Source: Candidatus Helarchaeota archaeon (lineage in GTDB: Archaea > Asgardarchaeota > Lokiarchaeia > Helarchaeales > RDOG01). From it: 64,000 nucleotides of DNA. Numbering within the stretch: position 1 is the first letter of the stretch; every line of letters starts with the position of its first letter. Made by a program: the position numbers and the translations under genes. The notes under the pieces are model-generated. The model was not told where the DNA came from. It did not search any database and saw only the letters and a program-made list of their open reading frames with translations. The stretch is from positions 224,001 through 288,000 of the forward strand of contig JAHPZH010000005.1 in the NCBI GenBank assembly GCA_019058315.1, in the 5' to 3' direction. Shown here one piece after another: positions 49,460 to 54,425 of the stretch.

Positions 49460-50212
49460 ATGATGAAATTAAAAGGAAAAGTAGCTTTAATTACCGGAGG
49501 AACAGCCGGGATTGGTAAAGCAACAGCTATACTGTTTGCTAAGGAAGGAGCAAGAATAGCAATAAATGGAAGAAATGAAAAAAAAGGAGAAGAAACTTTA
49601 AAAGCTTTGAAAAATATGGGTGCTGAAGCAATTTTTATCCAAGGTGATGTTTCAAAGGCAATTGATGCAAAAAAAATGGTTGAAGAGATAATAAAGAAAT
49701 TTAAGAAATTAGATATTTTGTTTAATAATGCAGGGATAGTGACACCAGGGACAATTGAATCTCTTACAGAAGAACAATGGGATAGAGAAATGGCAATTAA
49801 TGTAAAAGGAGTATTTTTAGTTACAAAATCAGCACTTCCTGAACTTCGAAAAACTAAAGGATGTATAATTAATAACGCTTCGGTAATCGCAGTTAAAGGA
49901 GTAAAAAATAGAGCTGTTTATTCCGCTTCAAAAGGAGCAGTTTTAACTTTAACAAAAGCTATGGCTGCAGAATTTTTAGACTATGGTATTAGGGTTAATG
50001 CAATTCTACCAGGAGTGACAGATACTCCATCACTTCATGTTCGATTGTCAAAATCTCTTGATCCAGAAGCTACTAGAGCGGAATTAATTGCGCGACAGCC
50101 ATTAAAACGTATGGCAAAGCCTGAGGAAATAGCTGAGGCAGTTTTATTCTTAGCTACTAATGAATTTAGCACAGGAACTGCCTTGTTTATTGATGGTGGA
50201 ATGACCATATAA
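49460..50212 (+). CDS. Short-chain dehydrogenase/reductase
   Basis: TGGTAGIG, NNAG, YSASK, IDGG. Confidence 0.95.
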   Translation: MMKLKGKVALITGGTAGIGKATAILFAKEGARIAINGRNEKKGEETLKALKNMGAEAIFIQGDVSKAIDAKKMVEEIIKKFKKLDILFNNAGIVTPGTIESLTEEQWDREMAINVKGVFLVTKSALPELRKTKGCIINNASVIAVKGVKNRAVYSASKGAVLTLTKAMAAEFLDYGIRVNAILPGVTDTPSLHVRLSKSLDPEATRAELIARQPLKRMAKPEEIAEAVLFLATNEFSTGTALFIDGGMTI

Positions 50213-50365
50213 AATATATCTTTCAAAGGCATTTAATTCAATTTATAGTGCCACTAAGGGAATTTTGTCGGAAAATATGAAATACTCCATCAATAATATT
50301 TTTTGCCTTTTTGAAATTTTATACAAAATGTTTAAAAATAATGTTTCTTAAATTCTGATCGTAAG

Positions 50366-50481
50366 TTTAAAAAACCCACAGTGTAAGAAGTGAAAATATT
50401 GAGGGATTTTGTTCACCATTGTTTTGGAAAACTTTAAAACAGTGAACTGTGGAAATACTCAAACTAACAATTCTGTTTTTT
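50366..50481 (+). promoter_or_regulatory. his operon leader: TATA box, His-His leader ORF, alternative hairpins and T6 tract (candidate attenuator)
   Basis: TTTAAAAA 50366; hairpin 50399-50462; AAAACAG 50436 can pair with TGTTTT 50420 or CTGTTTT 50473; T6 at 50476-50481. Confidence 0.65.
50390..50437 (+). CDS. Putative histidine leader peptide (hisL-like), MKILRDFVHHCFGKL
   Basis: GTG 50390 (or in-frame TTG 50399), CAC-CAT at 50414-50419, TAA 50435; 75 nt upstream of hisG. Confidence 0.6.
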   Translation: MKILRDFVHHCFGKL

Positions 50482-50511
50482 ATATCAAATTAAATTATTA
50501 TAGTTTTAGAT

Positions 50512-51501
50512 TTGGAGGTTTTTAAAATAAAAAAAATAAGATTCGTTATACCAAAGGGTTCACTAGAAAAAGACACCATGGATCTTCTTAAACAAGCGGG
50601 ATACAGCCTAGTCGGAACAGACAGATCTTATCGTCCGCTTATTAATGATCCAGAGATTGAATTGAAAATTCTTAGACCTCAAGAAATACCTAATTTAATT
50701 GCCCAAGACGCACATGATATCGGTATTTCTGGAATCGATTGGACAGAAGAATCTGGAGTAATTGATGAAGTAGAGGACATATTGGATTTGGAATATGGAA
50801 AAGTAGAATTGGTTGTTGCAGTCCCGAGGGATTGGGACGATGTAAAGAGCTTTTCAGACTTATTGAAGAAATTTCTAAATAAAAACAAGCCCGTACGAAT
50901 TTTCACAGAATTAATAGCAACAACTAAGAAATATATTATGAACAATCCTGTGTATAAACAAAAATTTCAAGATAAAGTCCCTGAAATAATCACTCCTTGG
51001 TCTAGGAATGGAGAAAATCCCCAAGTTAAAATCATCCTTTCTTTTGGAGCAACCGAAGCCAAACCACCCGAAGATGCGGAAGCTATTATTGACCTTACTG
51101 CAACTGGAAAAACCATCGAGGAAAATAAATTAAAAATTATTGATAGTTTAGTTTCCTCAACTGCACGGTTATTAGCTAACCGTAACGCCTTAAAAGATCC
51201 ATGGAAAAAAGGAAAAATTCAAGATATCAAGATGATATTGAAAGGTGTTGTAGAAGCTAGAAAAAAACTACATATATTCATGAATATTAAGAATGAGAAT
51301 CTACCAAAGATGCTTAAAGAACTTCCTGCTTTGAAGCGACCTACAATATCCCCTCTTTCAGGAATTGAAGGCTGGAGTGCAATTAATACTATCATACCCA
51401 AAGATACTTTTATGAAACTAATGCCGATTTTGAGAAAATATGCTCAAGGAATCGTAATACATGAACCAAGACAAATAATACCTTCTGAAGAAGAAGAATA
51501 A
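50512..51501 (+). CDS. hisG: ATP phosphoribosyltransferase (long form)
   Basis: IPKGSL, RPQEIP, DIGISG.DW, SFGATE, IDLTATG.T...N.L, C-terminal PTISPL domain. Confidence 0.95.
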   Translation: MEVFKIKKIRFVIPKGSLEKDTMDLLKQAGYSLVGTDRSYRPLINDPEIELKILRPQEIPNLIAQDAHDIGISGIDWTEESGVIDEVEDILDLEYGKVELVVAVPRDWDDVKSFSDLLKKFLNKNKPVRIFTELIATTKKYIMNNPVYKQKFQDKVPEIITPWSRNGENPQVKIILSFGATEAKPPEDAEAIIDLTATGKTIEENKLKIIDSLVSSTARLLANRNALKDPWKKGKIQDIKMILKGVVEARKKLHIFMNIKNENLPKMLKELPALKRPTISPLSGIEGWSAINTIIPKDTFMKLMPILRKYAQGIVIHEPRQIIPSEEEE

Positions 51502-51523: not shown

Positions 51524-52822
51524 ATGTTAGAAACAATAACCATTAAGGATTTTAAAAAACAATACTTAGAGAAGGTAATTAATAGAGGCAAAGTTCAATT
51601 CGAGGACGTCTCATTTGCAGTTTCAAAGATAATCAGTGAAGTAAAACAAAGAGGTGACGCAGCACTTCTCAGTTTTACTGATAAATTTGATGGTGTTAAG
51701 TTAAGTAAGGATAAGTTAGCAGTAGATAAAGACGAAATTAAAGAAGCTTATAAAAAAATTGATTCAAATTTCCTAGATGTCATTAAGATTGCTAAAAATA
51801 ATATAGCAAAATATCATCAAGCTCAATTTAGAGAGCCTTGGTTTGTTGAAACTTCAAAAGGAGTGTCAGTTGGACAAATTATGAAGCCTTATAAAAGAGT
51901 TGGGCTTTATATCCCTGGAGGAAGAGCCCCATATCCTTCTACAGTATTGATGACAGCTGTTCCAGCAAAAGTTGCAAATGTTAAGGAAATTATACTATGT
52001 ACACCACCTCAAAAAAATGGCAATATAGACCCCTATATTTTAGTTGCTGCAAATGAAGTAGGAATTGATAAAATCTATAAAGTAGGTGGAGCCCAAGCAA
52101 TCGCTGCAATGGCTTATGGGACTTCTTCTATTCCAAAGGTTGAAAAAATTGTTGGTCCTGGAAATATTTATGTTCAAGCAGCAAAACAAATTGTAAGTGT
52201 TGATGTTAGAATCGATTTACCAGCGGGACCAAGCGAAGTACTTATCATTTCTGATGAAAATAGTAATCCGAATTTTATTGCTGCTGATATTTTATCTCAA
52301 GCAGAACATGAACCGGGAACATTTTGTTTTCTACTAACAACATCGCCGGAAATTGTGGAAGCAACTATTTTAGAGTTGAAGAAATTAATCCCGGAGTTAC
52401 CTAAAAAAGAATTTGCAAGTGAAGCATTAGAAAAAAATGGATTTTTCATCCTCGTTGAATCAATTGAGGAAGCTATACAACTGACAAATAAGATTGCGCC
52501 TGAACACTTAGAAATCCAAATTAAAAACCCTAAGTCGGTTTTAGATAAGATTGAAAATGCCGGATCAATCTTTCTTGGTGATTTTGCGCCTGTTCCATTA
52601 GGTGATTTTGCAGCAGGTTCTAACCATGTCTTACCATCTGGTGGAGCTGCGAAATATTATTCAGGTTTATCTATTATGGATTATGTTAAACTAATAGATG
52701 TTATTCAAAGTACAAAAGAAGGTTTAAATGGGCTGAAAGAATGCATTGTGAACTTTGCACAGGTCGAAGGATTTCAAGCTCACGCCCAAAGTATTTTAAA
52801 GAGGTTTGATACTGGTGAGTAA
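51524..52822 (+). CDS. hisD: Histidinol dehydrogenase
   Basis: GLYIPGG, GGAQAIAA, GPGN, AGPSE, SQAEH, APEHL, GSNHVLP. Confidence 0.97.
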   Translation: MLETITIKDFKKQYLEKVINRGKVQFEDVSFAVSKIISEVKQRGDAALLSFTDKFDGVKLSKDKLAVDKDEIKEAYKKIDSNFLDVIKIAKNNIAKYHQAQFREPWFVETSKGVSVGQIMKPYKRVGLYIPGGRAPYPSTVLMTAVPAKVANVKEIILCTPPQKNGNIDPYILVAANEVGIDKIYKVGGAQAIAAMAYGTSSIPKVEKIVGPGNIYVQAAKQIVSVDVRIDLPAGPSEVLIISDENSNPNFIAADILSQAEHEPGTFCFLLTTSPEIVEATILELKKLIPELPKKEFASEALEKNGFFILVESIEEAIQLTNKIAPEHLEIQIKNPKSVLDKIENAGSIFLGDFAPVPLGDFAAGSNHVLPSGGAAKYYSGLSIMDYVKLIDVIQSTKEGLNGLKECIVNFAQVEGFQAHAQSILKRFDTGE

Positions 52823-53597
52823 AGAAGAAGGAGAAAAAGATTTAGAAAAAAATAAGGTTGATAGATCTAGAGATGATAATAGCTTGGTTTTTAGATCAGA
52901 TCAAGTTGTATCTTTGCTTGAAAAGGGAATAGAATTAGTACAATTAGGTAAAGCAGAAGAAGCTATTACTTATTTTGATCAAGTTATTGAAATTAATCCC
53001 GAAGATCCTTCTGGATGGTATAGTAAAGGTTCAGCTTTATTTAATTTAGGAAAGTTAGAAAAAGCCATATCATGTTATGATAAAGCTATTGAATTAAATC
53101 CAAAATTAAGTATCGCATGGTATATGAAAGGGAGTGTTTTATCTCAACTAAATAAATTTGAAGAAGCTATATCATGTATTGATAAAGCAATTGAAATAGA
53201 TCCAAAAAATCATTTTCCATGGTTATTAAAAGCTCGTACATTAGTCGAATTAGGTAAATTAAATGATGGAATATCATGTTACGATAAAGTAATTGAAATT
53301 GATCAGAGAAATCAAGCTGCTTGGAACGATAAGGGAGTAGTATTAATTAAATTAAAGGAATACGAGGAAGCAAATAACTGTTTTAATACAGTATTAGAAT
53401 TAAATCCAAATTCAGCTTTTGCCAATTATAATAAGGCTTGTGTGAGTTCTCTTCAAAATAAAAAAGATGAGGCTTTAAAACTATTAGAAATCGCGATTAA
53501 ATTAGATCCGTATGCTAAAGTGCTAATGGAAACAGATTCTGATTTAGATAATATTAGAGAATCAAAAAAATTTCAAGAATTACTTAAAGATGAATGA
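52815..53597 (+). CDS. Tetratricopeptide repeat protein with C-terminal TPR end domain
   Basis: About 6 TPRs; YNKAC..SL..DSDLDNIR; GTG start overlapping the hisD stop, GAGG upstream. Confidence 0.92.
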   Translation: MSKEEGEKDLEKNKVDRSRDDNSLVFRSDQVVSLLEKGIELVQLGKAEEAITYFDQVIEINPEDPSGWYSKGSALFNLGKLEKAISCYDKAIELNPKLSIAWYMKGSVLSQLNKFEEAISCIDKAIEIDPKNHFPWLLKARTLVELGKLNDGISCYDKVIEIDQRNQAAWNDKGVVLIKLKEYEEANNCFNTVLELNPNSAFANYNKACVSSLQNKKDEALKLLEIAIKLDPYAKVLMETDSDLDNIRESKKFQELLKDE

Positions 53598-53636
53598 TTT
53601 AGGATTAGACTATAATGAAATCGAGGTTTAAACCAA

Positions 53637-54425
53637 ATGAGTAGAAAGAAAGACGAAGTCGAAATGGATTCGGAAAATTCTGATAATACCAGTTCTAGAA
53701 ATACTCATGTATCTTTTTCTGAGAAAGATCAAATTAAAAATTTAAATATAGAAGGATTTAATTTAATCCGAACAGGAAAAGCCGAAGATGCAATCCTAAA
53801 TTTTGAAAAAATCATTGAAATCGATCCAAAGAATTCTATTGGATGGTATGGTAAAGGATCAGCTTTATTTGATTTAGGAAAATTAGATGATGCAATATTG
53901 TGTTTTGATAAAGCTGTTGAATTAGATCCATCTAATCCTGATGTTTGGTATGTAAAGGCGTCAGAATTAAAAGAATTTGGAAAATTTGAAGATGCAATAT
54001 CATGTTTTGATAAAGCAATTGAAATAAATCCAGATTTGATCGATATATGGTTAGATAAAGCAAGTACATTATTCAATTGGGGAAAAATAGATGATGCTTT
54101 ATTGTGTTATGATAATGCACTAGAAATTAATCCTAAGAATCAGGACACTTGGAACGAAAAGGGGATTTTATTATTAAAAATAAAGAAATACAAAGGAGCT
54201 CTAATCTGTTTTAATGAAGTATTAAAAATTAATCCCAATTCGGCTTATGCTTATTATAATAAAGCTTGCGTGGCTTCTCTTCAAAATAAGAAAGATGAGA
54301 CCTTAAGACTATTAAAAATTGCGATTAAATTAGATCCCTCTGATAAAGAGTCGATTAAAACAGATTCTGATTTTGATAACATCAGAGAATCAAAAGAATT
54401 TCAAGAATTGTTTAAAGAAGAATGA
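53637..54425 (+). CDS. Tetratricopeptide repeat protein, tandem paralog of preceding gene
   Basis: Same architecture; near-identical 3' end. Confidence 0.92.
   Translation: MSRKKDEVEMDSENSDNTSSRNTHVSFSEKDQIKNLNIEGFNLIRTGKAEDAILNFEKIIEIDPKNSIGWYGKGSALFDLGKLDDAILCFDKAVELDPSNPDVWYVKASELKEFGKFEDAISCFDKAIEINPDLIDIWLDKASTLFNWGKIDDALLCYDNALEINPKNQDTWNEKGILLLKIKKYKGALICFNEVLKINPNSAYAYYNKACVASLQNKKDETLRLLKIAIKLDPSDKESIKTDSDFDNIRESKEFQELFKEE

Follow-up and report, generated by a model that had tools for sequence, protein, structure and literature searches.

In this genome a gap of 299 nt separates hisG from a short-chain dehydrogenase gene (49460-50212). What in it could make an archaeal his operon respond to histidine? 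To our knowledge, the regulation of amino-acid biosynthesis operons in archaea is largely unknown, and the literature that we searched holds no report of ribosome-mediated leader control in this domain. The gap lies in a stretch of 64,000 nucleotides, referred to here as the window, whose host is archaeal according to its partial SSU rRNA (752 bits with the archaeal model vs 574 bits with the bacterial model), and it is followed by hisG, hisD, two TPR-repeat genes, hisC and hisB. A preliminary description of the window had proposed a histidine attenuator, in which a leader peptide with two adjacent His codons and a pair of switchable hairpins determine whether a U-tract is hidden or exposed. 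Based on the comparison of related leaders reported here, the region would be the 5' leader of the his operon mRNA that acts as a ribosome-based sensor of charged tRNA-His with a change of reading frame as its output, a reading toward which we incline, if only slightly.

All of the individual elements that had been pointed out in the window are present. An upstream open reading frame (uORF) of 15 codons, MKILRDFVHHCFGKL, runs from GTG 50390 to TAA 50435-37 and includes CAC at 50414-16, CAT at 50417-19 and an in-frame TTG at 50399, and its stop codon is followed after 75 nt by TTG 50512. The TATA-like sequence TTTAAAAA(A) was found at 50366-74, and AAAACAG at 50436-42 is complementary to CTGTTTT at 50473-79, with a T6 tract at 50476-81. 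The hairpin at 50399-50462 folds as described, with a free energy of -16.8 kcal/mol (z = -2.65, equalled by 3 of 200 shuffled sequences), and the stability of the whole 122-nt leader is ordinary in comparison to shuffled sequences (z = -0.32). The start of the uORF is assigned differently when the window is aligned with related leaders. By homology, it is TTG 50399, and the same-frame GTG 50390, which falls within the SD-like AGTGA, could also start the uORF. Upstream of these elements, the candidate TATA box TTTAAAAATA is essentially unchanged in strains of about 91% identity, with one minor A>T substitution at 50326, just outside the box, and the box at 50366 carries T>C at 50368 in close strains (three runs). 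The distance from the TATA box to the uORF start is 43-51 nt in relatives and 68 nt in the window, or 33 nt when counted from the box at 50366; if the latter is used as the promoter, TTG 50399 would be leaderless or nearly so. The coordinates of all features are collected in the table. Among them, the CCACAGU arm is homologous to CCACAGGTG in the same-family genome G001.

Table. Features of the his leader in the window, with the basis of each assignment.
Feature	Position	Strand	Basis
TTTAAAAATA, candidate TATA box of the leader transcript	50331..50340	+	sequence
TTTAAAAAA, TATA-like box of the preliminary description	50366..50374	+	sequence
CCACAGU, 5' arm of the predicted helix enclosing the uORF, pairing with 50446-52	50376..50382	+	minimum-energy fold of 50362-50535
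AGTGA, SD-like element 5 nt before TTG 50399	50389..50393	+	aligned to GGTG/GGAG/AGTGA of other leaders
Predicted leader uORF, frame 0: TTG AGG GAT TTT GTT CAC CAT ... TAA	50399..50437	+	homology to related leaders
Second long frame (LORF), +1 to the uORF, 40 sense codons	50403..50525	+	stop-codon analysis, close-strain comparison
Proposed +1 shift site, GUU in P site and CAC in A site	50411..50416	+	UU-CAY in 40/40 leaders
12-bp inner hairpin, core of the larger hairpin of the preliminary description	50417..50444	+	fold; directly 3' of the His codon, within the second frame
T6 tract within the second frame	50476..50481	+	sequence
GGAGGT, hisG Shine-Dalgarno	50514..50519	+	sequence
hisG (long form)	50527..51501	+	Pfam HisG and HisG_C

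Judged by its homologs, the uORF of the window is a member of a conserved leader family with the peptide M-R-x-x-[V/I/L]-H, which we defined by a uORF of the form [A/G/T]TG-AGG-n6-nUU-CAY together with an open second frame. The order to which the window belongs comprises seven genomes, six of which carry hisG, and the HisG identity among those six is only 62-65%. The leader motif lies ahead of hisG in all six, 100-125 nt upstream, and its elements follow one another in a shared order, namely an SD-like element, a start codon, AGG, two free codons, an nTT codon and a His codon. The peptides encoded by these uORFs are MRDFVH.., MRNCVHV, MRFCVHCYY, MRSCVH, MRRYFVHLE and MRRYLLH... The motif recurs at metagenomic hisG loci, most of which have a second near-copy 19 nt downstream. 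A gapless single-unit profile (R1) built from 31 leaders matched the window at 50385-50418 (E = 4e-4), the sole significant match in its own 5.8-Mb genome, on the hisG strand and upstream of hisG, and it also matched 37 of the 80 metagenomic hisG loci. A two-unit profile (R1+R2) was run on 87 genomes that belong to a different class of this phylum; 18 of them gave a match, at one place each, and every match at a locus also holding hisG lies just upstream of that gene. The preliminary description had thus pointed to a leader uORF with a His codon that is conserved far beyond the genome of the window. The motif was absent from the class-level relatives nearest to the window's order, where a different conserved motif was seen. 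The hisG loci scored as lacking the motif gave no usable control, since in many of them either another gene lies upstream or the motif is there in diverged form, outside the first search pattern. Scanning of 49900-50900 against Rfam at E up to 10 gave chance-level matches only, and the leader is undescribed in Rfam and in the searched literature.

The uORF was compared across 40 leaders. The first base of the start codon is never C (22 ATG, 11 GTG and 7 TTG), an SD-like element precedes the start in 37, and the His codon is in frame in 39. The sequence UU-CAY is present in all 40 with CAC in 24 and CAT in 16, a synonymous variation, and indels come in multiples of three (G002/G004 and L168/L189), all of which points to translation of the uORF. 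The codon before His is always nUU (GTT in 30, ATT in 5 and CTT in 5) and the second codon before His is mostly nGY, and the third uORF codon varies widely among D, E, G, K, N, Y, S and F. Considering that the third codon varies and that silent positions in nUU and nGY are fixed, the constraint does not act on the peptide; such silent-site constraint fits a shift site, not selection on the peptide. Close strains, available as DNA contigs of about 91% identity from other samples and used for variation only, add to this comparison. In the close strain, CAC at 50414-16 is replaced by the synonymous CAT, but CAT at 50417-19 is replaced by CTT, which argues that one His codon counts and not two. 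Of the adjacent His pair on which the proposed attenuator was built, the first codon is therefore conserved in every related leader and the second is not. Most likely, the short leader frame is translated and reports the supply of His-tRNA through the ribosome.

The switch assigned to the U-tract fared less well. Archaeal transcription termination at U-tracts is established, and a ribosome whose position sets a hairpin switch could in principle hide or expose U6 at 50476-81; in a variant of this explanation, an untranslated long frame would lead to factor-dependent termination (polarity). The hairpin described above is real by its z-score, the AAAACAG/CUGUUUU complementarity and the T6 tract are unchanged in the close strain, and T4-T7 runs are found in the six A+T-rich leaders of the order. 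However, the T6 tract of the window is ordinary for a leader so rich in A+T (shuffling test, p = 0.165), and many members carry T-runs of at most T2-T3; many leaders have no run above T3, and one has none above T2. Since T-runs are not conserved, U-tract attenuation was rejected as a feature of the family. When 50362-50535 was folded with a ribosome footprint held at the His codon and then at the stop codon, the pairing of T6 was left the same (0.36, 0.37 and 0.47), and AAAACAG was not transferred onto CUGUUUU in these constrained folds. Furthermore, the outer stem TTGAG/CTCAA is broken in the close strain by two uncompensated changes, at 50459 and 50461, and the loss of the second His codon there also speaks against this explanation, which we regard as highly improbable for both variants.

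The preliminary description had named conservation of the uORF and of its stems as a check on the attenuator, and the outcome was divided in that the His-codon uORF is conserved in relatives and no switching hairpin pair is conserved family-wide. RNAalifold detected no covarying structure in a 26-sequence core, and a covarying hairpin, which contains the His and stop codons, was supported only within the 6-codon class. A pairing of GUGAA with UUCAC, from the SD region to the His site, was noted as well and left unused, being present by eye in only about half of the leaders. The conserved architecture, as far as alignment and reading frames indicate, is that of a frame relay and not of a terminator/antiterminator pair.

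This relay consists of the uORF and of the second long frame that overlaps it. In the window, TGA 50400-02 closes the +1 frame upstream; between 50403 and 50522 it carries no stop, and it ends at TAA 50523-25 (probability of being open by chance, 0.035). The strain of 91% identity retains both the open frame and its stop, free of indels, with 9 of the 40 residues changed, and has two additional stops in frame 0. Judged from this comparison, it is the openness of the LORF that is kept, not its product. The +1 frame is likewise open up to hisG in all six hisG-bearing genomes of the order. A simple rule describes these and more distant leaders: starting from the uORF frame, each in-frame UU-CAY adds +1, and the resulting frame runs without a stop as far as the hisG start. 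In each of the 55 leaders analysed, the offset of the open frame agrees with the count of in-frame UU-CAY sites. L063 and L064 are counted under a relaxed site rule; their second site is degenerate, with CUC or UAU in place of nUU before the second His, and the open frame is kept. The window, with one site and a +1 frame open to the hisG start, follows the rule, as do all single-site leaders with an offset of +1 (L001-L006 of the window's order, L048, L050, L065-67 and L111), and two-site leaders have their open frame at +2. In L073, a 1-nt deletion puts the first site out of frame and leaves the second in frame, and the offset is +1. The probability of an open frame by chance is 0.011-0.29 per leader, and the product over ten distinct lineages, about 1e-14, is generous because the leaders are related by descent, so that the counts overstate their independence. 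Motif and frame design were both tested independently, and the rule that links site number to frame offset is new here.

How ribosomes might enter the open frame is indicated by what it lacks. In 4 leaders the long frame contains neither ATG nor GTG nor TTG, and in 6 others such codons occur only late; a stop located past the start of the uORF closes it in 4 leaders. The downstream +1 frame is thus without a conserved initiation site of its own, as expected of programmed +1 frameshifting. In two-site leaders, the frame of the second site has a stop within 3 codons of its His codon in 26 of 32 cases; the two control frames have one in 0 and 1 of 32, and one of these control frames is open through to hisG in nearly every leader.

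At its other end, the open frame meets the start of hisG. ATGA or TTGA overlaps with the hisG start are found in L006, L069, L079, L110, L112, L163, L073, L066 and L048, and a TAATG overlap in L109. Other paths end mostly 5 to 11 nt past the hisG start and in a few cases 3 to 9 nt before it, so that stop and start overlap or lie within 11 nt in the leaders examined. In three genomes, the long frame enters hisG without any stop; a general in-frame fusion of the long frame to hisG was considered and set aside, since it is true in these three only. For the window, the start of hisG probably has to be reassigned. The mechanically called start, TTG 50512, has no SD, and ATA 50527 lies 7 nt after the SD GGAGGT and gives the translation M-K-K-I-R-F-V-I-P-K-G, whose N-terminal length matches that of orthologs (M-x-K-V-K-F-A-I-P). 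Because ATA gives the ortholog N-terminal length and TTG 50512 lacks an SD, hisG probably starts at the non-AUG codon ATA 50527, one base past the stop of the second frame. This ATA is retained in the strain of about 91% identity, and the SD of hisG in relatives is GGAGG, AGGTGAT or CAGGAGA, 5-9 nt ahead of the start. The stop TAA 50523-25 is thereby placed between the SD and the likely start codon of hisG. The frames and their stops, the conservation of the sites and the geometry of coupling can all be read directly from the leader sequences.

From these observations, we infer a slip at the His codon, its dependence on histidine and the coupling to hisG. A slow A-site codon combined with weak P-site pairing promotes +1 frameshifting, as in prfB and Ty1, and 'hungry' codons cause ribosomal shifts (PMC5009743). 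In the proposed mechanism, ribosomes would initiate on the mini-uORF at TTG 50399, or at the same-frame GTG 50390. When His-tRNA is plentiful, CAC 50414-16 would be read and translation would terminate at TAA 50435-37, leaving hisG with its weak non-AUG start little translated. When His-tRNA is scarce, the ribosome would wait on GUU in its P site while the A site, at CAC, stays empty, and would then slip by +1 and read ACC. The shifted ribosome would then translate the 40-codon second frame (50403-50522), unwinding leader structure on its way, and terminate at TAA 50523-25, on the hisG initiation region between GGAGGT and ATA 50527, and hisG would be translated through termination-reinitiation or through an unmasked ribosome-binding site. 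Two further elements of the window might assist the slip. The purine-rich GAGGGA (50401-06) lies 4 nt upstream of GUU, with its GAGG core at 6 nt, and the inner hairpin at 50417-50444, which has no disrupting substitution in the close strain, may serve as a pause or stimulator. In two-site lineages, the sites would act in series: a first slip would bring the ribosome into the frame of the second site, at +1, and a second slip would be required to reach the +2 frame leading to hisG. Reaching +2 by a -1 shift at the first site was judged less parsimonious than two +1 shifts, since the offset in single-site leaders is +1 and the second site comes with a frame-specific stop.

That a hungry His codon triggers the +1 frameshift and that the second frame is translationally coupled to hisG seems to us somewhat better than an even call. 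The more specific picture, in which starvation is read out at a single codon by +1 frameshifting, two serial sites in many lineages square the response as a two-step check, the relay frame has no start of its own and the non-AUG hisG of this genome depends on the relay, stands at about even chances in our judgement. Several features fit the mechanism less closely. In a slip from GUU to UUC, tRNA-Val would re-pair at only 2 of 3 positions, and GUU-CAY is not among the shift sites known to us. L063 and L064 keep their open frame despite a degenerate second site. Without a shift, ribosomes on leaders of the long-uORF class would go on for another 14-17 codons, so an early stop after His is not universal. 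Nucleotide-level conservation of the second motif copy extends to leaders in which this copy is unread in frame 0, which a bound factor would also explain.

This last feature leads to a different explanation, in which the unit GAT-TGY-RTT-CAY (11-12 nt), occurring once or repeated directly at a period of 19 nt, binds a histidine-responsive trans-acting factor and the reading frames are secondary. Candidates for the factor would be an RNA-binding protein, a DNA-binding repressor that acts immediately past the promoter or, in a T-box-like manner, tRNA-His. Nucleotide conservation at silent positions and in a second copy that is untranslated in frame 0 would be accounted for, as would the fixed spacing between the two copies. 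The spacing in L168 and L189 differs, however, by exactly 3 nt, a change that keeps the frame and not the helical phasing, and nothing in this explanation would account for the signatures of SD and start codon, for the open frame or for the overlaps of stop with start. With respect to tRNA-His as the factor, the organism's own tRNA-His gave the best local match to the leader among 26 tRNAs (shared GAGGGATTG), but the resemblance does not carry over to G003, where the anticodon arm of tRNA-His does not follow the G003 leader. Mimicry of tRNA-His was accordingly dropped as a probable coincidence, and neither a T-box nor any other Rfam family matched the leader. We consider control by a trans-acting factor improbable, though less so than the U-tract switch.

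Stalling of the ribosome without a change of frame would retain the uORF as the sensor and has to be weighed separately. Here the stalled ribosome would remodel the leader, exposing the hisG ribosome-binding site or allowing non-canonical entry into the long frame or reinitiation there. The conserved uORF with its SD, start and His codon suits stalling as well, and so does the covarying hairpin of the 6-codon class with its His and stop codons. In addition, a helix that joins the uORF ribosome-binding region to a downstream segment and encloses that region exceeds shuffled sequences in 4 of 6 order members (combined p = 2.6e-4), CTCC..GGAG hairpins cover the hisG SD in some leaders, and mycobacterial short-ORF cysteine attenuators are a precedent for the use of stalling alone (bioRxiv 10.1101/834739). 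In the window itself, the same long-range helix was not beyond chance (p = 0.26), and no helix is conserved family-wide. Stalling alone leaves unexplained that the open frame is offset according to how many His sites there are, that the long frame of several leaders lacks start codons, and that the frame of the second site stops right after His. We find this explanation unlikely, although of the three alternatives it is the one we would give most weight.

Returning to the frameshift relay, its rule makes it accessible to experiment: because the number of His sites equals the frame offset, mutational expectations are clear and the prediction can be tested with reporters. If true, the leader would be the first physiological sensor based on 'hungry codon' frameshifting, and it would represent ribosome-based metabolite sensing in archaea with a logic unlike that of bacterial attenuation. 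It would also embody a regulatory principle for which no example has been described and which is shared by two classes within a single archaeal phylum. A 2016 review stated that no functional use of starvation-induced shifting was known (PMC5009743).

A leader of a related kind was seen at the trp operon of the same genome (contig C5, trpD start 509564, minus strand), where an SD-led mini-frame encodes M-D-W-N-L-L-L, with the counterparts M-D-W-N and M-D-W-A in G001 and G004. The long frame of the trp leader ends in FFWSWSWHY, and in LEWPWCWRN in G001. The frame relations of this leader differ from those of the his leader. As predicted frames, they show that leader frames with cognate codons are not confined to one operon in the lineage.

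Among known systems, the closest in setting is the enterobacterial hisL leader (RF00514), which also has a short SD-led leader frame with His codons at the 5' end of the his mRNA and in which the ribosome likewise serves as the presumed sensor of charged tRNA-His. hisL, however, has seven His codons in a row, together with a U-run and a terminator/antiterminator pair. In the leaders described here, one His codon is conserved at each site, no terminator is conserved, the second frame would be coupled to hisG and the host is an archaeon. Of the hallmarks of hisL-type leaders, the SD-led leader ORF is found in the window, and a run of cognate codons and mutually exclusive terminator/antiterminator structures with a U-run are absent; the Rfam model His_leader (RF00514) gave no match at E up to 10. 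The his-specific T-boxes of Firmicutes and Actinobacteria similarly present a His codon in a conserved leader ahead of his genes, but here the codon lies within a translated frame with SD and start, and no Stem I, specifier loop or T-box sequence was present in the leader folds. The mycobacterial polycysteine leaderless attenuators (bioRxiv 10.1101/834739) are alike in that the mRNA of a biosynthetic operon opens with very short ORFs whose cognate codons control downstream translation and not transcription termination; they rely on runs of Cys codons and stalling, with no frame change and no second overlapping frame.

With respect to mechanism, the nearest counterpart is the CUU-UGA-C site of prfB. 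An nUU P-site codon, SD-like purines upstream, a start-less +1 frame and a frame-0 stop at or after the site are common to both, and a slow A-site codon and a +1 slip would be so under the proposed mechanism. The slow codon of prfB is a stop and reports release factor, whereas here it would be a sense His codon and report amino-acid supply. Moreover, the product of the new frame would here not be the regulated protein, the frame serving to deliver ribosomes to the next gene; two sites can act serially, and the P-site codon is mostly GUU, with poor re-pairing. In Ty1 (CUU-AGG-C) and in the 'hungry codon' shifts of E. coli, a shortage of A-site tRNA leads to a +1 slip, as is proposed here, the shortage in Ty1 being constitutive and due to a rare tRNA (PMC5009743).

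Judged from the sequence, the probable start codon of hisG in the window is ATA 50527, a non-canonical one, which follows a perfect GGAGGT SD by 7 nt and would give the ortholog-like N-terminus M-K-K-I-R-F-V-I-P. The sole canonical in-frame start upstream of it, TTG 50512, overlaps this SD and is without an SD of its own. Further along the his operon, two paralogous TPR-repeat genes, encoding 263 and 262 aa, separate hisD from hisC.

In the three leader-bearing genomes whose +2 frame is listed in the table, a double shift, if it occurs, would yield an N-terminally extended HisG; hisG retains its own SD and start in all three. The His-codon leader was absent from the class-level relatives of family f4 (loci L007-L015). 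These loci have in common a conserved element, AAATTTCA(A/T)AA..TGAAT, located 40-90 nt before hisG, which is partly an inverted repeat and operator-like.

Positions of the features described in the leader-bearing genomes
Feature	Genome or sequence	Position	Locus
Region of the probable hisG start	window	50512-50530	
Paralogous TPR-repeat genes	window	52806-54425	
Archaeal-type tRNA-His	window's genome, contig C6	72340-72411	L113
tRNA array	window's genome, contig C3	626098-629155	L119
trp operon leader (minus strand)	window's genome, contig C5	~509565-509830	L171/L173
tRNA-His gene	G003	1453-1558	L114
+2 leader frame without a stop, continuous into hisG	G190, G206, G168		L183, L184, L186

The leader consensus (window 50400-50411) shares AGTGG..ATGAGGGATTG with the archaeal-type tRNA-His, in the stretch from the D loop to the anticodon loop, and among 26 tRNAs this one was the best match to the leader. 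The likeness is probably a coincidence, because it is not retained in the relative G003. In the tRNA-His gene of G003, for which ARAGORN made no call, an insert of ~30 nt seems to interrupt the D-arm region. The G003 contig DATKTP010000207.1 (L031) is publicly labelled as the bacterial genus Candidatus Deferrimicrobium; G003 and the archaeal genome of the window are assigned to one order, the archaeal-type promoter and the leader are common to both, and this may be a case of a mislabelled MAG. The window's genome, which has a contamination rating of 6.6%, also has at least 8 tRNA genes packed into a 3-kb array. One of them specifies a second tRNA-His, which is bacterial in style: its extra 5' G and its CCA are both encoded in the gene. 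The array may be a mobile element or may stem from contamination.

The trp operon leader of the same genome contains an SD-led mini-frame, TTG-GAC-TGG.. (MDWNLLL), overlapping the entry to a frame of ~61 codons that lacks a canonical start, has the C-terminal sequence FFWSWSWHY and finishes ~50 nt ahead of trpD. MDWN and MDWA mini-frames are present in the relatives G001 and G004, and a W-rich terminus, LEWPWCWRN, was found in G001.
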